Shown here: in pieces, positions 30,107 to 47,151 of the stretch | How positions within the stretch are numbered: the stretch's first letter is position 1 | Layout: each line of letters begins with the position of its first letter | Translations under genes and position numbers: made by a program | Source: Alphaproteobacteria bacterium | GTDB lineage: Bacteria > Pseudomonadota > Alphaproteobacteria > SHVZ01 | Length of the DNA: 47,491 nt | Assembly: GCA_964201945.1 (NCBI GenBank) | Contig: CAXNIC010000002.1 | Location: forward strand, 1 to 47,491 | Direction: 5' to 3' | Notes under the pieces: generated by a model | Told to the model about the DNA's origin: nothing | The model's database searches: none | The model's input: only the letters and a program-made list of their open reading frames with translations

Positions 30107-30186
30107 GGTCTGCGTCCTTTCGACCAGGCCATCCGATCTATGGCTGGTCCAAGTAAAGGTGCGCTGAGACCATTGGTTCCCGTCCG

Positions 30187-30978
30187 TCACGATCGGGCAG
30201 CATTCATCCCTATGATATTCTCGAGCGCGGCCAGCCCGTCGGTCAGCGCCGCCGGTCCCGGCTGCAGGATGATCGGCGACTTGATCTCATGGATGGCGCC
30301 GCTTCGGACCGCCGGGAGATTGGCGAACCCCGGGCGGGACCTAATCTTTTCCGGCCGGACCTTCTTGCCGCACCAGGAACCGATAATCAGGTCGGGAGAA
30401 CGCCCGATCACCTCCTCGGGCGTGACGATGCGATCCTTGGCAGCCCGCCCGCCGGCACGGTCGGCGAAGACATCGATGCCACCCGCGATTGCGATCAGTT
30501 CGGAGACCCAACCGATGGCGGAGATCAGCGGATCGTCCCACTCCTCGAAGAAGACGCGTGGTCGCCGCGGAAGCCCGGTGGTGCGCTGGCAGGCACCCTC
30601 GATGCCGTCCTCCAGACGTGCAACCAGCGCTTCGGCCCGGTCGCTCGCGGCGACCAGGGCGCCGAGCGTCCGGATCATGTCCAGGATCCCGGCGATGCTG
30701 CGCTGGTTGAAGACATGGACGGCAAGGCCGCGGCGAGCGAGGTCGGCGACGATGTCGGCCTGCAGGTCGGAAAAGGCGAGGACGAGATCCGGCTCGAGCT
30801 TCAGGATCTTCTCGACATCGGCGGAGACGAAGGCGCTGACCCGGGGCTTGTCGCGTCGTGCCTCGGGCGGCCGGACGACGTAGCCGGAGATGCCGACGAT
30901 CCGATCCTGCTCGCCGAGGAGGTAGAGCGTCTCGACCGTCTCCTCGGTCAGGCAGACGATGCGCGCGGGCGGGTACAA
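30187..30978 (-). CDS. BtuF/TroA-fold (periplasmic-binding-protein type 2-like) protein without signal peptide; 'cobalamin-binding protein'-like
   Basis: Motifs: RIVCLTEETVETLYLLGEQDRIVGIS, EKILKLEPDLVLAF, PDLIIGSWCG. No hydrophobic leader is present with any possible start. The start is set to TTG 30978, 7 nt after the upstream stop, and is uncertain. Confidence 0.65.
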   Translation of the reverse strand: MYPPARIVCLTEETVETLYLLGEQDRIVGISGYVVRPPEARRDKPRVSAFVSADVEKILKLEPDLVLAFSDLQADIVADLARRGLAVHVFNQRSIAGILDMIRTLGALVAASDRAEALVARLEDGIEGACQRTTGLPRRPRVFFEEWDDPLISAIGWVSELIAIAGGIDVFADRAGGRAAKDRIVTPEEVIGRSPDLIIGSWCGKKVRPEKIRSRPGFANLPAVRSGAIHEIKSPIILQPGPAALTDGLAALENIIGMNAARS

Positions 30979-30985
30979 GGCGACG

Positions 30986-31504
30986 TCAGAAACGGATGTC
31001 GGCCGACTCGATGACTTCGGCAAAGTCGCGGAGAACTGCATTGTGGTGGGCGACGATCTGCGGCGCCCTGAGCACGGCCGAGTCGAAGGTCGAATGCGCG
31101 TCGGAGGCCAGCACCACCTTGTAGCCAAGAGCGAAGGCGGCGCGGGTCGTGGTGTCGACGCAGAACTCGGTCTGCATGCCGGCGATCACCAGGCGGCCGA
31201 TGCCGCTGGCCCGCAGCCGCGCGTCGAGCCCGGTGCCGAGAAAGGCATCGCAGCGATCCTTGACCACCACCTCTTCACCCGGCTTCGGCGCCACGTCCGG
31301 ATGAATGGCGAACCCGGTCGTGCCGCGGGCAAGCGGGTGGCCGTCGTCTCCGGCATGCTGCACATGGAAGACGGGAACGCCCTCGGCTCTGGCACGGTCC
31401 TGCAGCGCGCGCAGGCGCTTCAGCAACTCATCCGGACGGTAGGGTCGCAGCGGATCGCGGAACATGCCCTGCTGGACATCGATGACGACGAGTGCGGTCG
31501 ACAT
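30986..31504 (-). CDS. Isochorismatase-family cysteine hydrolase
   Basis: Motifs: ALVVIDVQQGMF (Asp), VVVKDRCDAF (Lys), GMQTEFCVDTT (catalytic Cys). Confidence 0.85.
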   Translation of the reverse strand: MSTALVVIDVQQGMFRDPLRPYRPDELLKRLRALQDRARAEGVPVFHVQHAGDDGHPLARGTTGFAIHPDVAPKPGEEVVVKDRCDAFLGTGLDARLRASGIGRLVIAGMQTEFCVDTTTRAAFALGYKVVLASDAHSTFDSAVLRAPQIVAHHNAVLRDFAEVIESADIRF

Positions 31505-31679
31505 TGAGAGTCGCTCCTGACCGGGACCTATGGTCGCCGGAGTCTACGGCGTGTCGTCTACGCGACGGAAGCCGTCGTTCCCCGCCCGGGCCGCCGGCGG
31601 CAAACAAGGCATAGAACCAGGATGGCCCGAAGTGGCCAGGATCACGCAACCCGAGGCAGGGGCGCCGGACCGCCAGACG

Positions 31680-32567
31680 ATGCCCGACGCAATGGATCAT
31701 GCGGACGCGCCGGCGATACCGGCCACGATCGAGCTGTCGGCCCGCTCGATCGCGGCCGATCCCGCCGCCCTGCGGTTGATCCCGCCGGCAACACGGGTTT
31801 ATCTCGTCGACGCCGGCGACGGGCCGGCTTCCGAGTGGACGGACGCCTGTCGTCGGCTCACCGATGCGGGGCTGGAGCCCGTACCTCACATCGCCTGCCG
31901 GCGCATCCGTAGCCTTCAGGACATCGATGAGCGTCTCGAGGCCATGGCCGGAGCCGCCGGCATCCGCGACGTCCTGGTCATCGGCGGCGACATCGCCCGG
32001 CCGCTCGGTCCCTTCGCCTCCTCGATGGACCTGCTCGAGACCGGCATCCTGCAGCGTCACGGGATCACGAGGTTCGGCATCGCCGGTCACCCCGAGGGCT
32101 CTCCGGACGTCGCGCCGGCGGCGGTCGTCGACGCCCTGCACTGGAAGATCGAGCTCGCGGCCCGCACCGGCCTGGAGATCCGCCTGGTCACCCAGTTCGG
32201 CTTCGACCCGGAGGCGACGATCGGCTGGGCCGCGCGCCTGGCAGCGGAGGGCATCCGCCTGCCGATCCATGTCGGCGTCGCCGGCCCGACCAGCATGACC
32301 CGGTTGCTGAAATATGCGGCCCTCTGCGGCGTGCGCGCCTCGGCGTCGTTCGCCCTGAAGCGTGGCGCTGCGTTGACCTCGCTGATGGGTGGTTATTCGC
32401 CGGACCCATATGCGCGCGCGATCGAACGGAGCGGCCACGTCACGCAACTGCATGTCTATGCGTTCGGTGGCCTGGCGGCGACCGCCCACTGGCTGATCGG
32501 ACGAGGCTCGTGGCGCGGGCGGGACGAGACGACGCAAGCGATTCAGAACGTCAGGAGCATGCCGTGA
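31680..32567 (+). CDS. Methylenetetrahydrofolate reductase (MTHFR/MetF) family protein
   Basis: ORF 31530..32567. The start is tentatively ATG 31680 (ATG 31692 is also possible). MTHFR-like blocks: PHIACR, VLVIGGD, GIAGHPEG, VTQFGFD, PIHVGVAGP. Confidence 0.75.
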   Translation: MPDAMDHADAPAIPATIELSARSIAADPAALRLIPPATRVYLVDAGDGPASEWTDACRRLTDAGLEPVPHIACRRIRSLQDIDERLEAMAGAAGIRDVLVIGGDIARPLGPFASSMDLLETGILQRHGITRFGIAGHPEGSPDVAPAAVVDALHWKIELAARTGLEIRLVTQFGFDPEATIGWAARLAAEGIRLPIHVGVAGPTSMTRLLKYAALCGVRASASFALKRGAALTSLMGGYSPDPYARAIERSGHVTQLHVYAFGGLAATAHWLIGRGSWRGRDETTQAIQNVRSMP

Positions 32568-33493
32568 CGGAGACTGTCCTGCATTCGGCGACAAAGACCG
32601 CCGTGATCGGCTTCGGCCGGCCGTTCTGCGTGATCGGCGAGCGGATCAACCCGACGGGGCGGAAGAAACTGGCGGAGGCGATGATGGCCGGTGACTTCTC
32701 TGGCGTTTCCGCCGACGCCTTGGCCCAGGTCGCGGCCGGCGCCCTGGTGCTGGACGTGAATGCCGGGGTCACCGCCGTCGACCCGAACCTGTCTGAGCCA
32801 CCTTTGCTCGCCAGGACCATCGAGCTGGTGCAGTCGCTGGTCGACGTTCCGCTTTGCATCGACTCCTCGGTCCCGGCCGCTCTTGCGGCCGGACTTGCTG
32901 TCGCCAAGGGCCGGCCACTGGTGAACTCGGTGACCGGCGAGGAGGATCGGCTGGAAACGATCCTGCCTTTGATCAAGAAGTTCAACGTACCGGTGGTGGC
33001 GATCTCCAACGACGAATCCGGGATCAGCTACGATCCCGACGTGCGCTTCGCCGTTGCCAAGAAGATCGTCGAACGTGCCGCCGACCACGGCATCAAGCCA
33101 GAGGACATCGTCGTCGACCCACTGGTGATGCCGATCGGCGCCTTGAACAATGCCGGCTCCCAGGTCTTCCGCCTGATCCGGCGGCTGCGCGAGGAGCTCA
33201 AGGTCAACACCACCTGCGGCGCCTCCAACATCTCCTTCGGCATCCCCAACCGGCGAGTGATGAACGCCCACTTCCTGTCGATGGCCGCGGCCGTCGGCAT
33301 GACCAGCGCGATCATGAATCCGCTGCACAAGGAGGACATGGACGCGATCCGTGCCGCCAACACGCTGAACGGCTTCGACCCCGACTGCATGGCCTGGCTT
33401 CGGGCCAACCGAGACCCGGCAGCGGGCGGGGAAGCGGGGGCGGCCCGTCGCGAGCGCCGGGGGCGGCGCCAGGGGGCGGAGGCGGGCGCCTGA
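32564..33493 (+). CDS. Pterin-binding methyltransferase (methyl-THF:corrinoid methyltransferase; CmuB/MtrH/MetH-pterin-domain-like)
   Basis: GTG 32564 overlaps the upstream stop (GTGA), with AGGAGC 6 nt upstream. Motifs: IGERINPTGRKK, LVNSVTGE, TCGASNISFGIPNR (compare MetH GGVSNVSFG). Confidence 0.75.
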   Translation: MTETVLHSATKTAVIGFGRPFCVIGERINPTGRKKLAEAMMAGDFSGVSADALAQVAAGALVLDVNAGVTAVDPNLSEPPLLARTIELVQSLVDVPLCIDSSVPAALAAGLAVAKGRPLVNSVTGEEDRLETILPLIKKFNVPVVAISNDESGISYDPDVRFAVAKKIVERAADHGIKPEDIVVDPLVMPIGALNNAGSQVFRLIRRLREELKVNTTCGASNISFGIPNRRVMNAHFLSMAAAVGMTSAIMNPLHKEDMDAIRAANTLNGFDPDCMAWLRANRDPAAGGEAGAARRERRGRRQGAEAGA

Positions 33494-33556
33494 AAGGTTG
33501 CGTTTGCGGGCCAAATTGCCGTATTGCCGATAGTTCAACGTGGTCAGGGGAACCGG

Positions 33557-35968
33557 GTGAAGACCGAAATTCGTGTAGCGGTGATCGGCGGCGGTGTCGT
33601 CGGCGCGAGCGTGCTTTATCACCTGACCAAGCTCGGCTGGACCGACATCGCGCTGTTCGAGAAGCATGAGCTGACCTCGGGCTCGACCTGGCACGCGGCG
33701 GCGAGCGTCCACACCTACAACTCCGACGCCAACGTCTCGAAGCTGCAGAAATACACCATCGACCTCTACCGCGAGATCGAGCAGATCTCCGGCCAGAGCT
33801 GCGGCATCCACGCCACCGGCAACATGGTGGTCGCCACCACCGACGAGATCTTCGACAATCTGAAGCTGATGCATTCCCGCGCCAAGTACCTGGGCATGGA
33901 GACGCACCTGATCACGCCGTCGGAGGCGAAGAAGCTCAACCCGCTGATCGACGACAAGTGCTTCGTCGGCGCGCTCCATCGCATCGACGGCGGCCATGTC
34001 GACCCGAACGGCGTCACCCACGCCTATGCCATTTCTGCCCGGAAGGCGGGCGCCGAGGTTCACCGCTTCACCCAGGTGACCGGCTTGACCCAGCGTGCCG
34101 ACGGTACCTGGGACGTCGCCACCGACAAGGGCATGGTCCATGCCGAGCACGTGGTCAACGCCGCCGGCCTCTGGGCCCGCGAGGTCGGCCGCATGGCCGG
34201 CATCGAGCTGCCGGTGCTGGCGATGGAGCACATGTATGTGGTGACCGAGGAGATCCCCGAGGTCGTCGCCCATGGCCGCGAGGTCCTGCCGACCACCGAC
34301 TATTTCGGCGAGATCTACATGCGCCAGGAGGGGCGGGGCGTGCTGCTCGGCACCTACGAGAAGGATTGCCGGGTGTGGTCGCCGCACACGACGCCGTGGG
34401 ACTTCTCGATGCAGCTGCTGCCCGACGATCTGGATCGCCTCGCACCGCATCTCGAGATCGGCTTCAAGCACTTCCCGGCGGTCGGCCGCGCCGGCATCAA
34501 GAAGGTGGTCAACGGCCCCTTCACCTTCGCGCCCGACGGCAACCCGCTGGTGGGGCCGGTGCGCGGACTTCGCAACTACTGGTCGGCCTGCGGTGTCATG
34601 GCGGGCTTCGCCCAGGGTGGCGGCGTCGGCCTGGCGCTGTCGCGCTGGATGGTCGAGGGCGATCCCGGTGCCGACATCTTCGCCATGGACGTCTCGCGCT
34701 TCGGCAAATACGCGACGCACCAGTACACGCTGATCAAGGTGCCGGAGAACTACAGCCGGCGCTTCCGCATCGCCTATCCGAACGAGGAGATGCCGGCCGC
34801 TCGCCCGCTGCGCCGGACCCCGGTCTATGACCGCCTAAAGGACGCCGGCGCCGTGTTCGGGGCCAATTTCGGCCTTGAGGTTGCGCTCTGGTATGCGCCG
34901 AAGGGCATGGAGCCCGTCGAGAACCCCACTTATCGCCGCTCCAACGCCTTCCCGATCGTGAAGGAGGAGTGCCACGCGGTCCGGAACGCCGTCGGCCTGA
35001 TGGAGATCTCGGGTTTCGGCAAATACGAGGTGGTGGGACCGGACGCGGAGGCGTGGCTCAACCGTATCCTCGCCAACAAGATGCCGAAGCCCGGCCGCAT
35101 GGTGCTGGCGCCGATGCTCAATCCGCGCGGCACCGTCATCGGCGACTTCTCGGTCGCGCGCCTCGCGCAGGATCGCTTCCTGATCATCGGCTCGGGCGTC
35201 GCCGAGATCTATCACATGCGCTGGTTCGAGCAGCACCCGCCGCCGGCCGGCACTTATATCCGGCCGCTGCCGCATGCGCTGACCGGCTTCGGGATTGCCG
35301 GCCCGAAGTCCCGCGAGCTGCTGCAGCGCCTGGTGTTCGAGGATGTCTCGCACCAGGCGTTCAAATTCTTCGCCGCCCGCGAGATGGTGGTGGGGCTGGC
35401 GCCCTGCACGGTGCTCCGTGCCAGCTATACCGGTGATCTCGGCTACGAGATCTGGACGACGCCGGACTATCAAGTGACGCTCTATGACGCGCTGGTCGAG
35501 GCCGGCAAGGATCTCGGCCTTCGCCATTTCGGCAATCGGGCGCTGATGTCACTGCGCCTTGAAAAGGCCTATGGCGCCTTCTTCCGCGAGTTCCGCCCGG
35601 ACTACACGCCGATGGAGAGCGGGCTCGACCGCTTCGTCGCCTATGACAAGGCGGACTTCATCGGCCGCGAGGCGGCACTGAAGGACCGCGCCACGCCGCC
35701 GAAGAAGAAGCTGGTGCCGCTGATCGTCGAGACCGATGTCGAGGTCGTGGGATATGAGAGCGTGATGAAGGGCGACGACGCGGTCGGCCAGGTGACCTCC
35801 GGCGGCTACGCCCATTGGGCCGGCAAGAGCATGGCGATGGCCTATGTCGACCCGGCGCTGGCCAAGGACGGCGAGACGCTGTCGGTCCTGATCTTCGGCA
35901 AGGCCTGCCCGGCGGTGGTCGCGATGCAGCCGCTGTTCGACGCCAATGGCGGGCGCCAACGGGGGTAG
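33557..35968 (+). CDS. Dimethylglycine/sarcosine dehydrogenase-family enzyme (FAD oxidoreductase + GcvT aminomethyltransferase domains), copy 1
   Basis: The start is set to GTG 33557 by alignment to copy 2 (MKTEIRVAVIGGGVVG vs MKSHVRVAVVGGGVVG). Covalent-FAD-type motif SGSTWHAA. C-terminal GcvT-type region SYTGDLGYEIW. Confidence 0.85.
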   Translation: MKTEIRVAVIGGGVVGASVLYHLTKLGWTDIALFEKHELTSGSTWHAAASVHTYNSDANVSKLQKYTIDLYREIEQISGQSCGIHATGNMVVATTDEIFDNLKLMHSRAKYLGMETHLITPSEAKKLNPLIDDKCFVGALHRIDGGHVDPNGVTHAYAISARKAGAEVHRFTQVTGLTQRADGTWDVATDKGMVHAEHVVNAAGLWAREVGRMAGIELPVLAMEHMYVVTEEIPEVVAHGREVLPTTDYFGEIYMRQEGRGVLLGTYEKDCRVWSPHTTPWDFSMQLLPDDLDRLAPHLEIGFKHFPAVGRAGIKKVVNGPFTFAPDGNPLVGPVRGLRNYWSACGVMAGFAQGGGVGLALSRWMVEGDPGADIFAMDVSRFGKYATHQYTLIKVPENYSRRFRIAYPNEEMPAARPLRRTPVYDRLKDAGAVFGANFGLEVALWYAPKGMEPVENPTYRRSNAFPIVKEECHAVRNAVGLMEISGFGKYEVVGPDAEAWLNRILANKMPKPGRMVLAPMLNPRGTVIGDFSVARLAQDRFLIIGSGVAEIYHMRWFEQHPPPAGTYIRPLPHALTGFGIAGPKSRELLQRLVFEDVSHQAFKFFAAREMVVGLAPCTVLRASYTGDLGYEIWTTPDYQVTLYDALVEAGKDLGLRHFGNRALMSLRLEKAYGAFFREFRPDYTPMESGLDRFVAYDKADFIGREAALKDRATPPKKKLVPLIVETDVEVVGYESVMKGDDAVGQVTSGGYAHWAGKSMAMAYVDPALAKDGETLSVLIFGKACPAVVAMQPLFDANGGRQRG

Positions 35969-36014
35969 AGCGAGACTCGATGCAAGCCGCATCGATGGTG
36001 AAGGAAGTGTTTCG

Positions 36015-36830
36015 ATGTCCGATCTGATCGCCAATGCCCGCATGTACTCGGTCGCGCCGGAAGCGGCGGCGGCGTGGAAGCGGCTGTTCGCCTGGCTCAA
36101 GGAGCGGTCGGGCGTCGAGATGACGGTGATCGACCACGCCTTCCCGGCGTCGCTGGACGAGTTGTGGTCGCGGACGGATCTCGCCTGCACCTTCATGTGC
36201 GGCTGGCCGTTTATGCGCTATGGCGCCATCCACCAGGTGGTGGCGGCGCCGATCCCGAGCGCCCCTTATGCCAAAGGCCGTCCGGTCTATTGCTCGCATT
36301 TCGTCGTCCGCGACGACGCGCCGTTCAAGACGCTGGAGGACACCTTCGGCCATCGCTTCGCCTATACGATCCCGGACTCCCATTCCGGCTACAACGCGCC
36401 GCGCCATCATCTGCTCTCCTTTCGGAAGGGCGGAACCAAGGCTCTCTACCGGGAGATCGTCGGCCCCTTGCGGACGCCGCGGCTGATGGTCGAGGCGATC
36501 GTCGAGGGCAAGACCGATGTCGGTCCGCTCGACTCCTTCGCCTATGCACTGCTTCGCCGCCACTGGCCGGAGGTCGCCGGCCGTACCCGGGTGATCGCGT
36601 CCACCGAGGTGGTACCTATCCCGGCCTTCATGGCGTCCGCCGGCACATCGCCGGAAATCGTCGACCGCCTCGCCGAGACGCTATGCACCTTCGGCGACGA
36701 TCCGTCACACGCAGCGTTGCGCGAAGATCTTTGCATCCTCGGATTTGCCCGTGTCGCCGAGAGCGAGTACCGGATCACCGAAGACTGGGCCCAGGCCGCG
36801 GAGACGCGAGGCCTCGCCGAGATCGCCTGA
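36015..36830 (+). CDS. PhnD/phosphonate-binding-like periplasmic-binding-fold protein lacking a signal peptide
   Basis: ORF 35946..36830 trimmed to ATG 36015, behind AAGGAAG. N-terminus MSDLIANARMYSVAPEAAAAWKRLF is typical of PhnD-like family members and has no hydrophobic leader. The assignment is from overall sequence pattern only. Confidence 0.6.
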   Translation: MSDLIANARMYSVAPEAAAAWKRLFAWLKERSGVEMTVIDHAFPASLDELWSRTDLACTFMCGWPFMRYGAIHQVVAAPIPSAPYAKGRPVYCSHFVVRDDAPFKTLEDTFGHRFAYTIPDSHSGYNAPRHHLLSFRKGGTKALYREIVGPLRTPRLMVEAIVEGKTDVGPLDSFAYALLRRHWPEVAGRTRVIASTEVVPIPAFMASAGTSPEIVDRLAETLCTFGDDPSHAALREDLCILGFARVAESEYRITEDWAQAAETRGLAEIA

Positions 36831-36831
36831 G

Positions 36832-37425
36832 ATGCGGGCGCTGCTGCAGGCGATCGAGACGCTCTATCATCCTGCCGCCGATGGCCCGCTTGCGGTCGCC
36901 GCGAAGAGGATCGCAGGCGCCAGTCCCCAGCCGGGCAAGGGGACGCGGAAGCCGGTCGCGCAGTTCGTGCCTCGGGCCGTCGAACTGGCGCGCAAGGGGC
37001 CATTGGCCGCGATCGCCGAAGCCTTCGCCGCGATCGAGCCCGAGGCCGACTGGCTGCAGAACCCGAACTATTCGGTGGCGAGCCTGGGGCTGGGCTATGT
37101 CGACCGCTATGGCTATGTCGAGCTGGTCGGTCCCGGCCGGCCGGTCGAGAGCGCGGATCTTCTGGTCGGGCTGCTGCTGCTCGGGCCTGGCATGGACTAT
37201 CCCGACCACGCCCATCCGGCCGAGGAGGTCTATCACGTGATCGCCGGCCAGGCCGACTGGTGGCGCGAGGACGAGGGCTGGCGGCAGAAGGCGCCGGGTG
37301 CGGTCATCCATCATGCGCCGATGGTGCGTCACGCGATGCGGACGGCCGAGGAGCCGCTGCTGGCGCTCTATTGCTGGACCGGCCGCGTGCAGGTCTACGC
37401 GACGATGACGGAGGCGAAGGGATGA
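36832..37425 (+). CDS. Cupin protein with DMSP-lyase-type (DddQ/DddK/DddL-like) metal/Tyr motif
   Basis: ATG 36832 is 1 nt after the upstream stop. Cupin motif 1 is GMDYPDHAHPAEEVYHVIAG, which contains H-x-H-x3-E-x-Y. Motif 2 is PGAVIHHAPMVRHAM. Confidence 0.65.
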   Translation: MRALLQAIETLYHPAADGPLAVAAKRIAGASPQPGKGTRKPVAQFVPRAVELARKGPLAAIAEAFAAIEPEADWLQNPNYSVASLGLGYVDRYGYVELVGPGRPVESADLLVGLLLLGPGMDYPDHAHPAEEVYHVIAGQADWWREDEGWRQKAPGAVIHHAPMVRHAMRTAEEPLLALYCWTGRVQVYATMTEAKG

Positions 37426-37823
37426 GCGAAGCCAAGGGGCAATGTCTTTGCGGCGCGGTCCGCTTCCGGTTGGCTGGCGAGAAGCGGCCTGTGGTGGTCT
37501 GCCATTGCGGCCAGTGCCGGCGCTGGCATGGCCATGTCGGCGCCTATACGAGGGTGCCGCTCTCGGCGCTGACGGTGGAAGACGAGCGCAGCCTCGCCTG
37601 GTACCGAAGCTCGGAGTGGGCGCGGCGCGGCTTCTGCCGCGAGTGCGGGTCGAGCCTGTTCTGGGAAAGGATCGGCAACGACCACGTGTCGGTCGCCGCC
37701 GGCACGCTGGCGGCGCCGACCGGTCTCGAGACGGTGCTGCAGATCTTCGCCGAGGATGCCGGCGACTACTACGAGATCGACGACCGCATTCCCACTCGGC
37801 CGCCAGTCTCCGCGGCCGGCTGA
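37422..37823 (+). CDS. GFA (glutathione-dependent formaldehyde-activating enzyme / CENP-V) family protein
   Basis: ATG 37422 overlaps the upstream stop (ATGA). Zn-Cys pattern: CLCGAVRF, CHCGQCRRWHG, CRECGSSLF. Confidence 0.8.
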   Translation: MSEAKGQCLCGAVRFRLAGEKRPVVVCHCGQCRRWHGHVGAYTRVPLSALTVEDERSLAWYRSSEWARRGFCRECGSSLFWERIGNDHVSVAAGTLAAPTGLETVLQIFAEDAGDYYEIDDRIPTRPPVSAAG

Positions 37824-39838
37824 GCCGGGGTGCCGTCGAGGTCCAGATGGCAGGCGATCCTGTGCTCGCCGAAGCGCCGGACCGGCGGCGGCGTTGTCTC
37901 GCAGAGCCCGGCGATACGCTCCGGGCAGCGGCTGGCGAAGGGGCAGCCGACGATGACGTCGGTCGGGCTCGGCATGCTGCCTTCAAGCACCCGGTCCGGC
38001 GGCTCGGCGTCGGGATCCGGCGTCGGCGCAGCGGCAAGGAGGGCCGCCGTGTAGGGGTGATAGGGCGGGGCGAAGACCTGCTCGACCGGACCGTACTCGA
38101 CGATGCGGCCGAGATACATCACCGCGACCCGGTCGGCCATGTGGCGGACCAGCGCCAGGTCGTGGGAGATCAGCACGAGTCCGAGCTGCGAGCTTTCCAG
38201 GAGCTCGGCCAGCAGGTTCAGGATCGCCGCCTGCACCGACACGTCGAGGGCGGAGACCGGCTCGTCGGCGACCATCAGACCGGGATTGCCGGCCAGCGCC
38301 CGGGCGATGGCGACGCGCTGGCGCTGGCCCCCCGAGAGCTGGTGCGGCATGCGCTCGGCCATGTCTGCCGGCAGGCGGACCTGGGCGAGCAGCTTCGAGA
38401 CTTCGGCCTTGGCGTCGCGGTTCGCGAGGTTGCGCAGGAGCCGGAGGGGGCGGGTCAGCGCATAGGCGATCGAATGGCTCGGATTCAACGTCGAGTCCGG
38501 GTTCTGGAACACCATCTGGACCTGACGGCGGAGATCGGGCGGGCGGATGTCGACCGGGATCGTGGCGACGTCGGTGCCGCCGATCAGGGCCTCGCCCGAA
38601 GTCGCGGTCAGCAGGCCGGAGATGATCTTTGCCAGGGTGGACTTGCCGCAGCCGGACTCGCCGACGATCGCGAGCGTCTCACCGGCGCGGGCGTCGAGAT
38701 CGACGTCGGTGAGAGCGCGGACCACCTTGCCGGTGCCGCCGAACATGCCGCCGAGCTTGTACTCTTTCGTCAGGTTGCGGACGCTGAGCAGGATCGGCGC
38801 GTCGCCGGCGACAGGCTCGTCGTTGCCGAGGGTCGGGGCGTCAGCGGCTGAGGCGCGGATGGCGTCGAGGCGCACGCAACGCGCAAGATGGGCGTCCGAG
38901 CCGTTGGCGGGAACCATGGGCACCGGCCGTTCCTCGCATTCGTGCCTGACCGCGTAGACGCAGCGCGGCGCGAAAGCACAGCCCATGCGGGCCCGGTCGG
39001 CGGCGGCTATGGTTCCTTCGATCGGCCTGAGGCGCCCACGCCGGCGACCGCCGTGAAGGCGGGGGAGAGCGCCGAGCAGTCCGCGCGTATAGGGATGCGC
39101 CGGCGCATGGAACACGGACGCGATGTTGCCGGTCTCGACCAGCCGGCCGGCATAGAGCACGCCGATGCGGTCGCAGATCCGCGCCACCGTGCCGAGATTG
39201 TGGCTGATGAACAGGATCGCGGTGCCGAACTTGGCGCGGAGCTCGCGCACGAGCTCGAGGATCGCCGCCTCGATGGTGACGTCGAGGCCGGTCGTCGGCT
39301 CGTCCATGATCAGGAGCGCCGGTTCGGCCATCAGCGCCATGGCGATGACGACGCGTTGCTGCTGACCGCCCGAGAGCTGATGGGGATAGCGCTCCATCAT
39401 CGCCGCGGCGTCAGGAAGGCGGACCTCCTCCAGCATGGCGACGGCGCGGCGGAAGGCCGCCGCCTCGTCGGTCTCGCCGTGGAGGAGCGGCACCTCCATC
39501 AGCTGCCGGCCGATCGGCATCACCGGGTTCAGGCTCGACATCGGGTCCTGGTAGACCATGGCGATGCGGTTGCCGCGGATCCGGGACAGCTCGTGGTCGG
39601 TGAGGCCGGCGGTGTCGCGGCCTTCCACCAGGATCCGCCCTTCGACGATGCTCATGCCGCGCGGCAAATAGCGCATCGCCGCCAGCGCTACCGTCGACTT
39701 GCCGCAGCCGGACTCGCCGACCAGGCCGAGCGCCTCGCCTTCGGCGATGGTGAAGCTGACGTCCCTCAGGATGTTCTGGCGGCCAGACCGGTGGTCGTAG
39801 GCGATGGAGACGTTCTCGAAGGCGAGGACGTCAGCCAT
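37769..39838 (-). CDS. Fused double ATP-binding protein of a Dpp/Opp-type ABC importer
   Basis: Two complete ATPase cassettes. First: GESGCGKST...[15 protein letters not shown]...[11 protein letters not shown]. Second: [12 protein letters not shown]...[15 protein letters not shown]...[11 protein letters not shown]. Both have HPYT C-domains. Confidence 0.9.
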
Positions 39839-40736
39839 CGAGGGAGGCTTCGCGGAGGCCGGTGGCCAGGAAGTTGGCGCCGATGACCAGGGATGAGATC
39901 GCCAGCGCCGGGATGATCGTCATGTGCGGCCAGACGAAGATCATGCCGTAGGCTTCCTTGACCATGCCGCCCCAGTCCGGATCCGGCGGCGGCAGGCCGA
40001 CGCCGAGGAATCCCAGCACGCCGATCGCGATCGTCGTGTAGCCGAGGCGAAGGAAGAAGTCGACGATCAGCGGTCCCCTGGCATTGGGCAGGATCTCGAC
40101 GAACATGATGAACAGCGCGCTTTCGCCTCGCATGCGGGCGGCGGCGACATAGTCGCGGTTCTTCACGTCGAGGGTCACGCCGCGGACGATGCGGGCGATG
40201 ATCGGGGCCGAGGAGAGCGTGATCACCGCGATGATGTTGAAGGCCGAGGCGCCGAACTTCGCGATGATGATGAGGTAGAGGATGATCTTGGGGAATGCCA
40301 GGAGGGTATCGCCGATCCGCATGATCACCGTATCGATGAAGCCGCCGCGATAGCCCGAAACCAGGCCGAGGAAGACGCCGAGGGCCACGGCGCCGAGCAC
40401 GGCGATCGGCGCCACGGTCAGCACCGTGCGGGCGCCCCAGATCAGGCGTGAAAGGATGTCGCGCCCGAGATGGTCCACGCCGAGCCAATGAGCAGCCGAC
40501 GGATAGGGATCGGCGACCAGCGCGACGTCGATCCGGTTCGGCGGGTAGGGGGAGACCCACGGCGCCAGCAGCGCCAGCAGGCTCCAGGCGAGCAGGATCG
40601 AGGCGCCCACCGTCGCCAAAGGCGACCGGGTGAGGATGTTGAGGACCTGACGCAGCAGGCCGACATGGGCGTCGCCGGCCAGCCCGAGGCCCGGTGCTGC
40701 GCGCGGCCTGCCGATGTCGTGGATGATCTCGGTCAT
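39831..40736 (-). CDS. ABC transporter permease (DppC/OppC-like)
   Basis: Motif HWLGVDHLGRDILSRLIWGARTVL. Multi-TM. 8-nt overlap with the downstream ATPase gene. Confidence 0.85.
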   Translation of the reverse strand: MTEIIHDIGRPRAAPGLGLAGDAHVGLLRQVLNILTRSPLATVGASILLAWSLLALLAPWVSPYPPNRIDVALVADPYPSAAHWLGVDHLGRDILSRLIWGARTVLTVAPIAVLGAVALGVFLGLVSGYRGGFIDTVIMRIGDTLLAFPKIILYLIIIAKFGASAFNIIAVITLSSAPIIARIVRGVTLDVKNRDYVAAARMRGESALFIMFVEILPNARGPLIVDFFLRLGYTTIAIGVLGFLGVGLPPPDPDWGGMVKEAYGMIFVWPHMTIIPALAISSLVIGANFLATGLREASLDG

Positions 40737-41671
40737 ACCCGGATCCGCGGATCGAGCGCCATGTAGCCGAGATCGCCGAAGAGCTGCGTCAGCATGGTGA
40801 CGCTGACGGCGATCAGCGTGCCGGCCTCGATCACGGCGATGTCCTTGGCCAGCGCCGCCTCCAGCATCATCCGGCCGAAGCCAGGATAGGCGAAGAGGGT
40901 TTCGACCACGACGAGGCCGGAGACCAGGTAGTTGAGCTGCAGCAAGATCACCGTGAACGGCGTGATCAGGGCGTTGCGCAGCGCGTGGCGCGAGACCACG
41001 CGGTTGAACGACATGCCCTTCAGCAGCGCGGTCCGGATGTAGGGTTGGCGCATCACCTCGACCATCGAGGAGCGCACCATCGCGATCAGATAGCCGGCAT
41101 CATAGAAGGTCACCACCAGCACCGGCAGGACGAACTGCATCCAGATCGCCCAGCCGCTGTCGGATCGCAGCGGCGAGGTGCCGGGAAGCCAGCCCAGCCA
41201 CACCACGAAGATGCCGAGCAGGAACACCCCCATGGCGAATTCGGGGATGGACGCGCACATCGACGAGAACACCGAGATGGTGCGGTCGAACCAGCCGCGC
41301 TCGCGCATGCCGGCGAGCACGCCGAGGACCACGGAGAGCGGCACGATCACCGCGAAGGAGATGGCGGCGAGCAGGAGGGTGTTGCCGAGGCGGTCGAACA
41401 TCAGGTCGGCGACCGGCATGCGGAAGACGATCGAGTCGCCGAAGTCGCCGGTGAGCGCCTTGCCCATGTATTCGAAGTAGCGGACGATGGCGGGGCGATC
41501 GAGCCCCATCTGTACGGTCAGGTGGTCGACCTGGCTCTCGCTCGCATAAGGCCCGAGGATCTTGCGGGCGACGTCGCCCGGCGACAGCTCGTTCAGCGCG
41601 AAGACGAGGAACGACACCGCGAACAGCGTCAGCGCCATGTTCAACAGCTGCTTCGCGGAATAACGCAGCAT
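40733..41671 (-). CDS. ABC transporter permease (DppB/OppB-like)
   Basis: Multi-TM. EAA-type loop QPYIRTALLKGMSFNRVVSRHALRNALIT, C-terminal LDPRIRV, ATGA overlap with the next gene. Confidence 0.85.
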   Translation of the reverse strand: MLRYSAKQLLNMALTLFAVSFLVFALNELSPGDVARKILGPYASESQVDHLTVQMGLDRPAIVRYFEYMGKALTGDFGDSIVFRMPVADLMFDRLGNTLLLAAISFAVIVPLSVVLGVLAGMRERGWFDRTISVFSSMCASIPEFAMGVFLLGIFVVWLGWLPGTSPLRSDSGWAIWMQFVLPVLVVTFYDAGYLIAMVRSSMVEVMRQPYIRTALLKGMSFNRVVSRHALRNALITPFTVILLQLNYLVSGLVVVETLFAYPGFGRMMLEAALAKDIAVIEAGTLIAVSVTMLTQLFGDLGYMALDPRIRV

Positions 41672-41763
41672 CGCCGCTCCAGGCGGTTGATGTTATCGGG
41701 AAAATGACGGCCGCTCCGCGGGCGCGATGGGCGCCCGCGGAGCGGAACCGTTCAGGCCTTGAA

Positions 41764-43428
41764 TCAGGCGTCGATCCACATGTCCTTGGCGTCGATGTAG
41801 ATGCTCGGGTGGATCTTGTATCCCTTGATCTTCTTGTCCGAGTAGTTGAACACCGCGCGCCAGACCGGGACCACCGCCGGGCCGTCGTCGAGCATGATGC
41901 GCTCGAGCTTGGCCATCACCGCGCGGCGCTTCTCGACGTCGAGATAGCCTTCGGCCTCGGTCAGCAGCTTGTCGAACTCGGCATTCGACCAGTTCGCCTC
42001 GTTCCAGGCGGCGCCGGTGCGATAGGCGAGGCCGAGGATCATGGTGCCGAGCGGGCGATGGGCCCAGGTGGTGAAGCCGAACGGCACCTTGGTCCAGTTC
42101 GCCCAATACTGTGCCGACGGCATCACGTTGATCTTGCAGCGGATGCCCGCTTCCTTCCACTGCTCGACCATGATCTGGACCGCGAGCAGCTCCCAGTCCG
42201 GCTGGGGGCGGGCGTCGATGGTGACGTCGATGCCGTTCGGATATCCCGCCTCGGCCAGAAGCGCCTTCGCCTTGGCAATGTCTTGCTTGAGATAGCCGAT
42301 GTCGGCGTATTCCGGATGCACCGGCGCGACATGGTGGTGCTCGCCGGGCTTGCCGAGGCCGCGCAGCGCCCCCTTGAGCACGGCGTCGTTGTCGGTGGCG
42401 TAGCGCAGCGCCTGTCGCACCCGCTTGTCGTCGAAGGGCTTGATCGGGTGGGTGCGGGCGACCGCGGTATAGCCTGTCGCAACCGAGTTGACCTGCACAT
42501 GCGGCAGCTTCTCGACCGTCGGCAGCGTCGAGATCGCGCCCTGGTAGATCATGTCGACCTGCTTGGAGGCCAGCGCCGAGACCTGGGCTGCGGCGTCGTC
42601 GCCGAGGTCGATGATCTCGTAGCGGTCGATGTACGGACCGCCGCCCCAATAGGCCTTCTTGTTCGCGGCGAAGACCGAGCGCTTGCCGACCTCATGCTCG
42701 ACCAGCTCGAAGGCGCCGGTGCCGTCGCTGCCGACGCCGAACTTGCCGCCGTCCTCCGGCGAGCAGATCAGCAGCGGGTAGTGGAACAGCGATTCCGGGA
42801 TCGAGAGATTGGCGGAGTTGCCGTTCAGCTTGATGGTGAAGTCGTCGACCTTCTGGATCGCATTCGCATCCCAGAGCTTGACCGACTTCCTGGGCGCGCC
42901 CTTGGCGTCCTTCTCGCCGCCGTCGTACTCGGTCAGGATGAAGCCCTTGAGTAGGCCGACGACAGACGATCCGGTCTTGTCGTCGAGGACGCGCTTCAGG
43001 TTCCAGACCGCATCGTCGGCGGTGAACTTGCGGCCCTTGCGCCAGGTCACGTCCTTGCGCAGATGCAGGGTCCAGGTCTTGAGATCGGGGCTTGCCTCCC
43101 ACTTCTCGACCAGCGAGGGCCGCGTGACGTTGTCGATGCCGGTGACGGTCAGGTAGTCGAGAACCTGGCGAGCGGAATTGGCCGACTCGATCCAGGAATA
43201 GGTATGCGGGCTGGAGATGTCCTGCACGCGCATGCCGATGCGGACGATGCCGCCCTTCTTCGGCGCGCCCTGGGCCAGGGCCGGAGCGGCGAGGCCCACC
43301 ATGCTGTAGGCGGCCGGCGCGGCGACGCCGAGCAGGACGGCCAAGCGTAGAAACTCGCGGCGCTCGAGCTTGCCGTCGGCGAACTCTCGGCCGGCCTTCT
43401 CGATGATCGGATGCAGCTTCTCGGTCAT
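41764..43428 (-). CDS. ABC transporter substrate-binding protein, family 5, with twin-arginine signal
   Basis: ORF 41764..43497 trimmed to ATG 43428, behind GGGAGGTGA. Tat motif ERREFLRLAVLLGVAAPA...ALA|QG. SBP_bac_5 core (SLVEKWEASPDLKTWTLHLRKDVTWRKGRKFTADD; GTGAFEL). Confidence 0.85.
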   Translation of the reverse strand: MTEKLHPIIEKAGREFADGKLERREFLRLAVLLGVAAPAAYSMVGLAAPALAQGAPKKGGIVRIGMRVQDISSPHTYSWIESANSARQVLDYLTVTGIDNVTRPSLVEKWEASPDLKTWTLHLRKDVTWRKGRKFTADDAVWNLKRVLDDKTGSSVVGLLKGFILTEYDGGEKDAKGAPRKSVKLWDANAIQKVDDFTIKLNGNSANLSIPESLFHYPLLICSPEDGGKFGVGSDGTGAFELVEHEVGKRSVFAANKKAYWGGGPYIDRYEIIDLGDDAAAQVSALASKQVDMIYQGAISTLPTVEKLPHVQVNSVATGYTAVARTHPIKPFDDKRVRQALRYATDNDAVLKGALRGLGKPGEHHHVAPVHPEYADIGYLKQDIAKAKALLAEAGYPNGIDVTIDARPQPDWELLAVQIMVEQWKEAGIRCKINVMPSAQYWANWTKVPFGFTTWAHRPLGTMILGLAYRTGAAWNEANWSNAEFDKLLTEAEGYLDVEKRRAVMAKLERIMLDDGPAVVPVWRAVFNYSDKKIKGYKIHPSIYIDAKDMWIDA

Positions 43429-43539
43429 GCTCACCTCCCTGGTGAAATTGCGCGGTCCGGCCTTTCGCGGCGGTTTCGGCGCAAGGGTGATCGACATCGG
43501 ACACGTCGTGGGTCGAGGCTAGTCCAGCGCGCCCGACAG

Positions 43540-43553
43540 GCGCAAGCTTGCGC
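43540..43553. promoter_or_regulatory. Perfect 14-bp palindrome in the divergent control region
   Basis: GCGCAAGCTTGCGC read directly. It lies between the SBP start (43428, -) and the oxygenase start (43680, +). No cognate regulator gene is present in the island. Confidence 0.35.
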
Positions 43554-43679
43554 ATACCCTGGAGTAGCCGGCCAGCGACATCCGGTGTCGCGATTGGGCG
43601 GAGCGCCTCCCAACTTTGTCCGTGCCGGCCCTTCGATTGTCGCGCAGAATGCGGCTACTCCGGCTTTCGGCGCTTGTCC

Positions 43680-44702
43680 ATGATCCCGACCATCGACATC
43701 TTGTCCCTTCTCGGCCCTCCCACGCGTCTTCGCGAGGACACCGACCGGCGCGTCATGGAGGCGGCCAGCCGGATCGGGTTTCTGACGATCTCGGGCCTGC
43801 CGGTCGACGTGCCGCAGGGACCGGCGGTGCGCGCCGGACTGCTTCGGGTTTTCTCGCTGGCGGACGCGGCGAAGCGGGCGCTCTGGCGGCGCAAGTTCGA
43901 TCCGGCGCGGCCGAACGTCTACCATGGCTGGTTTCCGCTCCAGAACGGCGCCATGACCTACAAGGAGGGCATCGACATGGGGCCGGATGTCGCCGATCCG
44001 GCCCATGCCTGCGATCCGACCGATCCGCTGACGGAGCCGACGCCGCTGCCGGACGAGGCCATCCTGCCGGGCTGGCGGGCGGAGGCGGGACAGTACTACC
44101 GCGGGATGGAGAGGCTCGGCCGCCTCCTGATGCGGTCGGTCGCCCGCGGCCTCGGCCTGCCCGAGTCCTTCTTCGATGCCTCCTTCGCCGGCGGCAACTC
44201 GACGCTGCGGCTGATCCGCTATCCGGTGCGGCCGCCCGAGTCCTTCGCCGGCGGGGACATGGACGCCATCCTCGTCGACCATGGCGGCGCACGCCGCCAC
44301 CTGATCGGCGGCGCCCATGTCGACTCGGGCTTCGTCACCCTGCTGGCCCAGGACGGCATCGAGGGCCTGCAGGCCCGGTCGGCCGCCGGCACCTGGCTCG
44401 ACGTTCCGCCGGTCGAAGGCACGCTTGCAGTCAATTTCGGCGGCGTACTCGAGCGCTGGACCGGCGGGCGGATCAAGGCGACCGAGCACCGGGTCGTCGG
44501 CCCGGGGCGCGAGCGCTTCTCGATCCCGTTCTTCTACGAGCCCCGGGTCGACGCGGTGATCGCGCCCCTGCCGATCCCGGGCGTCCAACCGTTCGAGCCT
44601 TTCCTCTACGGCGACCATCTGTGGGCGGCGATGATGCGTTTCGTCGAGTTCCGCGGGCTCGAGGCGATGCGGCCGCCGCGCGGTCTCAGGGCTACGGGTT
44701 GA
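43680..44702 (+). CDS. 2-oxoglutarate/Fe(II)-dependent oxygenase (isopenicillin-N-synthase-like family)
   Basis: ORF 43548..44702 trimmed to ATG 43680 (MIPTIDILSL...). Facial triad H-x-D (GAHVDSG) plus distal His (KATEHRV). 2OG-binding RERFSIPFF. Confidence 0.8.
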   Translation: MIPTIDILSLLGPPTRLREDTDRRVMEAASRIGFLTISGLPVDVPQGPAVRAGLLRVFSLADAAKRALWRRKFDPARPNVYHGWFPLQNGAMTYKEGIDMGPDVADPAHACDPTDPLTEPTPLPDEAILPGWRAEAGQYYRGMERLGRLLMRSVARGLGLPESFFDASFAGGNSTLRLIRYPVRPPESFAGGDMDAILVDHGGARRHLIGGAHVDSGFVTLLAQDGIEGLQARSAAGTWLDVPPVEGTLAVNFGGVLERWTGGRIKATEHRVVGPGRERFSIPFFYEPRVDAVIAPLPIPGVQPFEPFLYGDHLWAAMMRFVEFRGLEAMRPPRGLRATG

Positions 44703-44724
44703 TCGATCGAACCGGGGGGAGTGG

Positions 44725-47151
44725 ATGAAGTCCCATGTCCGCGTCGCCGTCGTCGGCGGCGGCGTCGTCGGCTGCAGCGTGCTGTTCCACCTGGCCAAGG
44801 CTGGCTGGCGCGATATCGCGCTGCTCGAGCGGCTGGAACTGACCTCGGGCTCGAGCTGGCACGCGGCCGGCGGCTTCCACACGCTGAACGGCGACCCGAA
44901 CGTCGCCAAGCTGCAGAGCTACACGGTGCAGCTCTACAAGGAGATCGAGGAGATCTCCGGCCAGTCCTGCGGCCTCCACATCACCGGCGGCATGATGCTG
45001 GCCGGCACGCCCGAGCGCATGGACTTCCTCAAGCTCGCCCACGCCAAGGGCCGCTACCTCGGCATGGAGACCGAGATCATCGACGCCGCCGAGGCGAAGC
45101 GCCGCCTGCCGCTGCTGGACGAACGCCACTTCCTCGGCGCCATGTACGACCCGCTGGAAGGACATCTCGATCCGTCCGGAACCACCCATGCCTATGCCAA
45201 GGCCGCCCGCAGCTTCGGCGCCGAGATCTACCGCCAGACCCGGGTCGTCGAGCTGAACGCCCGGCCTGACGGCGGCTGGGACGTGGTCACCGACAAGGGC
45301 ACCATCCGCGCCGACCACGTGGTGAACGCCGGCGGTCTCTGGGCCCGCGAGGTCGGCCGCATGGTCGGGATCGAGCTTCCGGTGCTGGCGATGGAGCATC
45401 ACTACATCGTCACGGAGGACATGCCCGAGGTCGCTGAGGCCAACGCCGCGACCGGCAAGGAACTCATCCATGTCATCGACTTCGAGGGCGAGGTCTATCT
45501 GCGCCAGGAGGGGAAGGGAATCCTGCTGGGATGCTACGAGCGGCAAGGCGTGCCCTGGGCGCCCGACAGCACGTCCTGGGACTTCGGGCCGGAGCTGCTG
45601 GCCGAGGATCTCGACCGGATCGGTCCCAGCCTCGAAGTCAGCTTCAAGCACTTCCCGGCGATGGCGAAGGCAGGGATCAAGCGGGTGGTGAACGGCCCCT
45701 TCACCTTCACCCCCGACGGCAACCCGCTGGTCGGCCCGGTCCGGGGCCTGAGCAACTACTGGGCCGCCTGCGGGGTGATGGCCGGATTCAGCCAGGGCGG
45801 CGGCGTCGGCCTGGCGCTTGCCAACTGGATGATCGAGGGCGATCCCGGCTTCGACGTCTGGGGCATGGACGTGTCGCGCTACGGCGACTGGGCGACCCCG
45901 GCCTATACCAATGCCAAGGTGCGCGAGAACTATTCGCGGCGCTTCCGCATCCGCTTCCCCAACGAGGAGCTGCCGGCCGCCCGCCCGCTCAAGACCGTGC
46001 CGATCCAGAGCCAGCTCGAAGCGGAGAACGCCGTCTTCGGCGCCTCCTACGGCCTCGAATATCCGCTGTGGTTCGCACCCAAAGGCATGCCGGCCGAGGA
46101 GACCGTCACCTATCGCCGCTCCAACGCCTTTCCCGTCGTCGCCGCGGAGTGCCGGGCGGTCAGGACCGGCGTCGGCCTGATGGAGACCTCCGGGTACGGC
46201 CGCTACGAGGTGGCCGGGCCGGATGCGGAAGCATTCCTCGATAGCCTGCTCGCCAACCGCATGCCGGCGCCGGGCCGCCTCGTGCTGGCCCCGATGCTGA
46301 ATGCCAAGGGCAAGCTGATCGGCGACTTCACCGTCGGTCGGATCGCGCCCGACCGCTTCTTCATCGTCGGCTCAGGACCGGCCGAAGCCTATCACCTCCG
46401 CTGGTTCGAGCGTCAGCGGGGCGGGCGCAACGTCACCATCCGGCCGATGACGGCGGAAATGGCCGGGCTCGCCATCGCCGGGCCGAAGGCGCGGGACCTG
46501 CTGGCACGGCTGGTCCGCGACGACCTGTCGACCGAGGCGTTTCCCTTCCTTTCGATCCGCCGTATGGCGGTCGGGATGGTGCCGGCGCTGGTCTCGCGCA
46601 TCAGCTTCACCGGCGAACTGGGCTATGAGCTCTGGTGCGCGCCGGACAGCCAGCGGGCGCTCTACCAGGCGATCCGGGACGCCGGCCGCGACCTCGGCCT
46701 GGTGCTGTTCGGCAGCCATGCGCTGCTGTCGCTCCGCCTGGAGAAGGGCTTCGGCATCTGGGCCCGCGAGTACCGGCCGATCTATGGACCGGAGGAAGCC
46801 GGCCTCAAGCGCTTCGTCCGCCTCGACAAGGGCGACTTCGTCGGCCGCGAGGCGGCTAAGGCTGAGCGCGGGGAGGGCGGCGAGCGCCGGCTGGTGCTGT
46901 TCGAGGTCGATGCGCGCGATGCCGATGCCTTCGGCGACGAACCGATCTGGTACGCCGGCAAGGTCGTCGGCTGGATCACCTCCGGTGGCTACGGCCACAC
47001 GGTCGGCAAATCGCTGGCGCTGGGTTATGTGCCGAAGGCGCTTGCCGGGCAGGCATCAGGATTCGAGATCGAGATCATCGGCGAACGCCGCGGGGCGCGC
47101 ATCCTGGAGGCGTCGCCTTACGACGTGAGCGGAGGACGGATGCGGGCGTAG
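44725..47151 (+). CDS. Dimethylglycine/sarcosine dehydrogenase-family enzyme (FAD + GcvT domains), copy 2
   Basis: Motifs: MKSHVRVAVVGGGVVG, SGSSWHAAG, SFTGELGYELW. Collinear with copy 1 over its full length, roughly 60% identity by eye. Confidence 0.85.
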   Translation: MKSHVRVAVVGGGVVGCSVLFHLAKAGWRDIALLERLELTSGSSWHAAGGFHTLNGDPNVAKLQSYTVQLYKEIEEISGQSCGLHITGGMMLAGTPERMDFLKLAHAKGRYLGMETEIIDAAEAKRRLPLLDERHFLGAMYDPLEGHLDPSGTTHAYAKAARSFGAEIYRQTRVVELNARPDGGWDVVTDKGTIRADHVVNAGGLWAREVGRMVGIELPVLAMEHHYIVTEDMPEVAEANAATGKELIHVIDFEGEVYLRQEGKGILLGCYERQGVPWAPDSTSWDFGPELLAEDLDRIGPSLEVSFKHFPAMAKAGIKRVVNGPFTFTPDGNPLVGPVRGLSNYWAACGVMAGFSQGGGVGLALANWMIEGDPGFDVWGMDVSRYGDWATPAYTNAKVRENYSRRFRIRFPNEELPAARPLKTVPIQSQLEAENAVFGASYGLEYPLWFAPKGMPAEETVTYRRSNAFPVVAAECRAVRTGVGLMETSGYGRYEVAGPDAEAFLDSLLANRMPAPGRLVLAPMLNAKGKLIGDFTVGRIAPDRFFIVGSGPAEAYHLRWFERQRGGRNVTIRPMTAEMAGLAIAGPKARDLLARLVRDDLSTEAFPFLSIRRMAVGMVPALVSRISFTGELGYELWCAPDSQRALYQAIRDAGRDLGLVLFGSHALLSLRLEKGFGIWAREYRPIYGPEEAGLKRFVRLDKGDFVGREAAKAERGEGGERRLVLFEVDARDADAFGDEPIWYAGKVVGWITSGGYGHTVGKSLALGYVPKALAGQASGFEIEIIGERRGARILEASPYDVSGGRMRA

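Follow-up and report, generated by a model that had tools for sequence, protein, structure and literature searches.

Three tightly packed genes, encoding a leaderless PhnD/AioX-like binding-fold protein, a cupin resembling the dimethylsulfoniopropionate (DMSP) lyase DddQ, and a GFA-family protein, are found on contig CAXNIC010000002.1 of assembly GCA_964201945.1, which originates from an alphaproteobacterium of the SHVZ01 lineage. The window, i.e., the whole stretch of DNA analysed, spans the 47,491 nucleotides (nt) of this contig and has a high GC content (about 0.62-0.70). The three plus-strand genes were called by codon-position GC at the positions given in a preliminary description of the trio, and the gaps reported there (+1 nt and -4 nt) are exact as well, so that this observation holds in all details. 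The stop codon of the PhnD-like gene (TGA, 36828-36830) is separated by one base from the cupin ATG at 36832, the cupin stop and the GFA start overlap as ATGA (37422-37425), and the GFA stop codon occupies 37821-37823. The PhnD-like gene starts 47 nt past the stop of the upstream dimethylglycine dehydrogenase (DMGDH)-type gene. The trio closes a six-gene same-strand unit, made up of MTHFR-like, pterin methyltransferase, DMGDH-type 1, PhnD-like, cupin, and GFA genes, and no terminator-like sites were seen on the plus strand across 31000-38200.

The cupin translation contains both HAHPAEEVY and PGAVIHHAPMVRHAM, the two strings from which a DMSP-lyase signature had been proposed, and this assignment was borne out: the protein scores above the threshold of Pfam DMSP_lyase and has lost none of the DddQ active-site residues. 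Among solved structures, its best matches are DMSP lyases of DddQ type, 5CU1 (E 1.2e-21), 4B29, and 4LA2. Alignments to the solved DddQs place Tyr120, His123, His125, Glu129, Tyr131, His163, and Trp178 at Y123, H126, H128, E132, Y134, H167, and W182 of the cupin, all of which are invariant among 16 homologues, down to 45% identity. The HxHxxxExY motif, whose loss in orthologues had been named as a reason to doubt the assignment, is, therefore, kept throughout this set. The roles of the active-site residues and the definition of the Cupin-DLL superfamily were established by Lei et al. (bioRxiv 10.1101/161257); the six residues of that definition (HxHxxxExY, the His of motif 2, and a terminal Trp/Tyr) are all present here. 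The AlphaFold model of the cupin has a predicted local distance difference test (pLDDT) score of 94, and its top Foldseek matches are DddQ structures, aligned over the full length with template modelling (TM) scores of 0.75-0.79 and 24-29% identity. Generic cupins match the barrel only, with E-values eight orders of magnitude weaker, and thiol dioxygenases are found among the lower matches. Judged from its sequence, the cupin belongs to the Cupin-DLL superfamily, in which it appears to be a divergent protein of DddQ type, with a complete predicted metal and Tyr/Trp active site; the model likewise points to a protein of DddQ type in fold and active site, yet a distant one.

The resemblance to DddQ from Ruegeria and Roseovarius (5CU1, 4LA2, 4B29) covers the Pfam family, the N-terminal helical part combined with a cupin barrel, and an identical active-site set, including the second-motif His, the terminal Trp, and the extra Tyr. 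It also extends in part to the gene context. The published neighbourhood of DddQ consists of mandelate-racemase-like and DMGDH-like genes, from which Lei et al. proposed a role in proline- or hydroxyproline-betaine catabolism, with a DMSP lyase activity that is merely promiscuous (bioRxiv 10.1101/161257). The window echoes this neighbourhood in part: a DMGDH-like gene lies directly upstream of the cupin trio, and an MR_MLE gene is found about 25 kb off in a genome of the same genus, and none in the window. Nevertheless, the cupin differs from DddQ by its low identity (24-29%), by its place in a separate clade with a clade-specific LQNPNY motif, by a leaderless PhnD-like partner that is near-constant in this clade and unreported for DddQ, and by the non-marine origin of the carriers.

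The neighbouring binding-fold protein had been described as devoid of a signal peptide, and orthologue starts and the structural model agree with this. In all 23 orthologues from the collected loci and in 21 aligned homologues, the protein starts only a few residues ahead of a conserved LIANARMY stretch. In the AlphaFold model (pLDDT 92), the first beta-strand lies at residues 5-7, too close to the start for a leader to fit in. By fold, its nearest relatives are AioX, ArrX, PhnD, and PtxB, the best solved ones being AioX/ArrX. The protein shares with them the type II binding-protein fold (TM about 0.8) and a Ser-x-Ser-Gly-Tyr oxyanion loop, but it is only about 22% identical to them, and differs by the absence of a signal peptide and by extra invariant Arg, His, and Asp residues. 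It falls far below the cut-off of the PhnD equivalog TIGR03431 (44.3 bits vs. 261.1). The family is unusually conserved, with 63 invariant columns, a mean column identity of 68%, and many invariant Arg, His, and Asp residues among the 21 homologues. The AioX pocket is formed by Tyr88, Cys106, Tyr131, Ser161, Ser163, His192, and Asp210 (PMC5908839). Mapping through a HMMER alignment to 6ESK showed that five of these seven positions are kept and invariant, with Cys106, Tyr131, Ser161, Ser163, and Asp210 corresponding to C62, Y92, S122, S124, and D173; the AioX-specific Cys106 is, thus, among the conserved residues, together with the equivalents of Tyr131 and Asp210.

Unlike periplasmic AioX/ArrX and PhnD, the leaderless protein is encoded without a partner sensor kinase or a PhnCE transporter: the genes scanned at 27157-47151 include none of two-component type, and the only ABC (ATP-binding cassette) system nearby is of Opp type. 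A role as the classical solute-binding protein of this adjacent importer was rejected, because a family-5 binding protein is encoded with the importer itself and the PhnD-like one lacks a leader. Arsenic and phosphonate readings were considered because of the AioX-like Cys and of a GFA relative acting on fosfomycin; they are kept as speculation, as no ars, aio, or phn genes lie nearby. Scanning 1.8 billion representative sequences yielded 113 clusters at E <= 1e-30, and since the full-length ones likewise start at residues 1-10, a broader family of leaderless PhnD-like proteins exists. No common gene context was found for the distant members of this family, and an ESM Atlas look-up returned same-family clusters only.

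The link between the two genes was followed with a pattern scan in which each species was represented by one genome; it gave 49 loci, against which the window proteins were run by tblastn. The carriers are for the most part metagenome-assembled genomes (MAGs) with short contigs and species labels that are not reliable. A quick IQ-TREE tree of 76 PF16867 proteins gathers the PhnD-linked cupins in a single clade of 27 members, with a Shimodaira-Hasegawa-like approximate likelihood-ratio test (SH-aLRT) support of 94. When clade representatives were compared with the PDB, no near-identical DddQ was found, and one clade matched nothing solved; because of this, the PhnD-linked clade is resolved in the tree, but the positions of the named Ddd families are not. 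The PhnD-like gene is present in the locus for 24 of the 27 cupins, and the contigs of the remaining three (L012, L014, L016) end just upstream of the cupin. According to tblastn, the two genes are neighbours in all close relatives, and this still holds where the cupin is only 45% identical. Cupin identities of 45-52% go along with PhnD-like identities of 62-71%, the PhnD-like protein being the better conserved of the two.

Three architectures surround the pair. The window and its close relatives have the order DMGDH-PhnD-cupin-GFA. Seven loci (L051, at 9087-10004, L011, L012, L020, L021, L022, and L049) have PhnD-desaturase-cupin, the inserted gene encoding a fatty-acid-desaturase-family membrane protein of 305 amino acids (aa), with three intact His boxes (HEIVH, HLTHH, HATHH) and with start and stop codons that overlap both neighbouring genes. 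The third is a bare pair among housekeeping genes. In one locus, L025, the two genes are divergently oriented. As the pair recurs in 24 loci, across several alphaproteobacterial families and these three architectures, the arrangement exceeds what chance would give. The trio, which had been presented as the unit, is conserved only in part, because GFA follows the cupin in 12 of the 24 loci (11 fetched loci and the window), spread over more than one subclade; co-occurrence across genomes, thus, holds for the pair and in about half of the clade for the GFA gene. The conserved unit is the pair, which the trio extends in a lineage-specific manner. The clade of the window cupin is distinct and is marked by the leaderless PhnD/AioX-like protein encoded alongside.

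Evenly sampled Alphaproteobacteria genomes (n = 401) provide the background for this linkage. PF16867 is present in 48 of them, and a PhnD-like match at E <= 1e-40 in just 10. In both same-genus genomes, where the PhnD-like protein is 90-92% identical, the cupin is adjacent. Two other genomes have PhnD-like matches of 74-75% identity: one is fragmented, with the cupin on another small contig, and the other is 79% complete, with no cupin found. In Aliidongia, the PhnD-like gene is 54% identical. Fusions of the two proteins were found neither among the 120 best-scoring homologues of the PhnD-like protein (up to 475 aa) nor in a cupin search for longer proteins, which is weak evidence. Prediction of a complex between the PhnD-like protein and the cupin gave a score of 0.00, which brings no verdict and is not used either way. 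Another, well-supported PF16867 clade is found in Acidimicrobiia (L030-L047), with its own conserved neighbourhood (clusters c6, c9, c10, and c13-c15) and no PhnD-like gene.

The preliminary description also held, as far as its author could tell, that this was not a described pathway. The link between DddQ-type cupins and DMGDH-like betaine genes, and the view of their DMSP lyase activity as promiscuous, are in fact published (bioRxiv 10.1101/161257). The superfamily itself and the uncertainty over what it natively does have likewise been described, but no paper describing the leaderless PhnD/AioX-like partner or the clade of the window cupin was found in the literature.

Regarding the third gene, its attribution to the Zn-Cys GFA family (PF04828) stands, with seven Zn-ligand cysteines kept. 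They form two Zn sites, one of four cysteines (C8, C10, C72, C75) and one of three (C27, C29, C32). These are nearly the positions found in the integron-encoded Gfa173 (C8, C10, C74, C77 and C27, C29, C32), a GFA-family protein catalysing the glutathione-dependent inactivation of the electrophile fosfomycin (preprint 10.64898/2026.10.07.757220). The best solved relative of the window protein is PA2722 (8AJQ, E 2e-12). A phmmer search of the PDB at E <= 1 returned only 8AJQ, 3FAC, and a chance match to the phage tail-fibre protein 5YVQ (E 0.15). The structure of Paracoccus Gfa, the glutathione-dependent formaldehyde-activating enzyme, is presumably present in the PDB, so the window protein shows no close similarity to this solved member of the family. 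Since similarity to Paracoccus Gfa went undetected, the 'aldehyde handling' once suggested for this gene is an inference from family membership.

The genes around the trio are listed in Table 1. On the 5' side and on the same strand lie the MTHFR-like, pterin methyltransferase, and DMGDH-type 1 genes; on the 3' side, a convergent Opp-type importer is followed by a 2-oxoglutarate (2OG) oxygenase and DMGDH-type 2.

Table 1. Genes of the trio and of its surroundings in the window, with strand and supporting matches.
Feature	Position	Strand	Remarks
MTHFR-like gene	31530..32567	+	First in same-strand unit; Pfam MTHFR E 1.4e-9; far under NCBIfam MetF cut-offs
Pterin-binding methyltransferase (methyl-tetrahydrofolate:corrinoid type, MtgD-like)	32510..33493	+	Pfam Pterin_bind E 1.3e-29; NCBIfam NF005719 378.7 bits vs. 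cut-off 259; start codon uncertain
DMGDH-type flavoprotein 1 (DAO-FAO_M-GCV_T-GCV_T_C)	33524..35968	+	Pfam; end-to-end match to mammalian dimethylglycine dehydrogenase 5L46, E 1e-181
Leaderless PhnD/AioX-like binding-fold protein, 271 aa	36015..36830	+	Phosphonate-bd PF12974 E 3.6e-29
Putative DddQ-type cupin (Cupin-DLL superfamily), 197 aa	36832..37425	+	DMSP_lyase PF16867 E 3.2e-34, 118.4 bits vs. cut-off 27; also Cupin_2
GFA-family Zn-Cys protein, 133 aa	37422..37823	+	PF04828 E 3.6e-20, 72.6 bits vs. cut-off 24.3
Fused double ABC ATPase, Opp/Dpp-type importer	37769..39838	-	Two ABC_tran and two oligo_HPY stretches; adjoins module in relatives too
ABC permease, OppC-like	39831..40736	-	Pfam
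ABC permease, OppB-like	40733..41671	-	Pfam
Family-5 solute-binding protein of importer	41764..43497	-	SBP_bac_5 E 4.5e-66; under all NCBIfam equivalog cut-offs
2OG-Fe(II) oxygenase	43491..44702	+	PF03171 E 1.7e-18; start codon uncertain; 339 aa in relatives; pairs with DMGDH-type 2 in relatives
DMGDH-type flavoprotein 2	44635..47151	+	Pfam DAO/FAO_M/GCV_T/GCV_T_C; start codon uncertain

Relatives display a richer version of this context. A Hyphomicrobiaceae MAG has DMGDH-PhnD-cupin-GFA-M24 (creatinase-like), and then an ABC importer, MttB, DUF1638, and a corrinoid protein, while another MAG has PhnD-desaturase-cupin-GFA-M24-MttB. A 98%-complete genome of the same genus (L087, G234:C10:372000-391900) continues past DMGDH-type 2 with MttB, DUF1638, a corrinoid protein, M24, homocysteine S-methyltransferase, a RACo-type activator, MR_MLE, Fe-ADH, and a second MttB. 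The window contig stops at 47491, right after DMGDH-type 2, at the point where the same-genus genome continues with the MttB set, and the island is probably truncated by the assembly break. Judging by gene content, the trio appears to lie in an island for the import and demethylation of quaternary or methylated amines. Such a set matches the cobalamin-dependent glycine-betaine demethylation system of Ruegeria pomeroyi, consisting of MtgB, MtgC, MtgD, MtgE, RamA, and DUF1638 (PMC12478193). The window shares with it an MtgD-like pterin protein and DMGDH-type enzymes, and the islands of the relatives share with it and with the MttB superfamily of quaternary-amine methyltransferases the MttB paralogues, corrinoid protein, DUF1638, RACo activator, and homocysteine methyltransferase. 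Nevertheless, the Ruegeria system is not described with a cupin, a PhnD-like protein, or a GFA protein, and the island's importer is of Opp type, not betaine type. The convergent 3' ends of the GFA (+) and ABC ATPase (-) genes overlap by 55 nt (37769-37823), and comparable overlaps are seen in relatives, e.g., in L002 at 10941-10989.

Taken together with the active site of the cupin, this context leads to a proposal to which we give about an even chance: a cytoplasmic binder and a metal-dependent lyase would act on an onium zwitterion within a methylated-amine island, the cupin not being a dedicated DMSP lyase. The binding-fold protein would stay in the cytoplasm, where its retained Ser-x-Ser/Tyr/Asp/Cys pocket would bind a small zwitterionic onium compound by the anionic end. 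The metal centre of the cupin would take the same or a derived molecule and, as in DddQ, abstract an alpha-proton and eliminate a cationic leaving group (an amine or, less likely, a sulfide), leaving an unsaturated acid. In the part of the clade that has it, the GFA Zn-thiolate protein would attach a thiol to a reactive by-product, which could be formaldehyde released in the DMGDH-type steps or the unsaturated acid itself. The onium lyase chemistry suggested in the preliminary description, thus, fits its surroundings, which read as a quaternary-amine (onium) catabolic island, while the reaction itself is inferred. In a stronger version, which we regard as rather improbable, the PhnD/AioX-like protein would be an obligate cytoplasmic partner of the cupin, as a substrate-capturing subunit or co-enzyme, and the substrate cleaved by both together would be a quaternary-ammonium zwitterion or a different onium compound, e.g., an organo-arsenic one.

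Several observations weigh against this proposal. Two residues of the AioX pocket, Tyr88 and His192, are replaced by Pro in the PhnD-like protein. MttB was not found in the window's own genome, which is 75% complete, with the contig ending at 47491. The pair also occurs bare among housekeeping genes, PhnD-like matches of 38-47% identity have no adjacent cupin and lie in unrelated contexts, and one copy of 60% identity is also without a cupin. On the chemical side, dimethylsulfide (DMS) is a better leaving group than quaternary ammonium, and no cupin is known to act as a C-N lyase.

One alternative is that the cupin is a genuine DMSP lyase, releasing DMS and acrylate, with the GFA protein and neighbouring genes handling the products. 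The Pfam match and the complete set of DddQ catalytic residues agree with it, and DddQ enzymes do cleave DMSP measurably; however, their reported activity is very low and was itself judged promiscuous (bioRxiv 10.1101/161257), and the window cupin is just 24-29% identical to them, in a separate clade. Because the carriers are MAGs from freshwater (lakes), groundwater, and soil, according to the record titles, and because neither the window's genome nor two others of the genus, one of them 98% complete, yielded a dmdA-type gene, a dedicated DMSP lyase is unlikely. Acrylate-utilisation genes were not found either among the neighbours scanned. We, therefore, consider this alternative very improbable, and the cupin is most likely not a dedicated DMSP lyase. 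The same metal site could also serve a metal-dependent oxygenase or isomerase, for example, an Fe(II) dioxygenase whose substrate is a thiol or an amine intermediate, with the PhnD-like protein as an accessory binder. His125/Glu129/His163 of DddQ correspond to H128/E132/H167 of the cupin, and a His/Glu/His site of this kind is also used by cupin oxygenases. The thiol dioxygenases among the lower Foldseek matches would suit this explanation, as would O2-dependent neighbours, namely the 2OG oxygenase and, in seven loci, the di-iron desaturase-family gene with its three His boxes, translationally coupled to the cupin. Nevertheless, the Tyr and Trp specific to lyase-like cupins are invariant, and DddQ alone matches the full-length fold, so that an oxygenase or isomerase also seems unlikely.

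Finally, adjacency may not imply a shared substrate: the PhnD-like protein would serve a separate purpose in the cytoplasm, for instance the buffering or sensing of oxyanions, and only travel along with the cupin. Its gene does occur without a cupin, the broader leaderless family is found in unrelated contexts, another gene may be inserted between the two, and fused forms were not found, weak as this evidence is. Such an explanation sits poorly with an adjacency that 24 of the 27 clade members share, in different families and in three architectures, with a cupin clade that coincides with the PhnD-like subgroup of at least 60% identity, and with genes 1 nt apart in the window, and we hold it to be doubtful, a little more so than an oxygenase.

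Several consequences follow for the study of these cupins. PF16867 genes are routinely tallied as DMSP lyases in metagenomes, and the clade described here cautions against taking PF16867 matches as DMS production. It is a well-defined clade with non-marine carriers, in which the cupin is linked to a presumably cytoplasmic binding-fold protein and lies within methylated-amine islands that depend on cobalamin and flavin. The PhnD-like protein would add a case of a transporter or sensor binding-protein fold recruited to the cytoplasm; being small and well-folding, it offers, through ligand screening, a practical handle on the native substrate of DddQ-like cupins. Should the obligate-partner version be true, the pair would constitute the first cupin-type 'betaine lyase', revealing the long-sought native chemistry of DddQ-like cupins.

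Some further genes border the module. In the window, a BtuF/Peripla_BP_2-family gene and an isochorismatase-family gene lie at 30187-31504 on the minus strand, divergent from the MTHFR-like/pterin methyltransferase unit. According to the preliminary description, this second binding protein also lacks a leader, and a cytoplasmic corrinoid-handling role is conceivable in a corrinoid-dependent context. In close relatives (L004, 3-4450), the region 5' of the MTHFR-like gene encodes S9 prolyl-oligopeptidase-family, DUF2817, and beta-lactamase-fold proteins, which are absent there in the window; these genes, along with the Opp-type importer, hint at a peptide-like or N-methylated peptide substrate. 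Two distant relatives have GTP-cyclohydrolase-II-like, DUF1688, and UPRTase genes 5' of the module (L051, 3762-6953), which we take to be a URC-type pyrimidine catabolism set.

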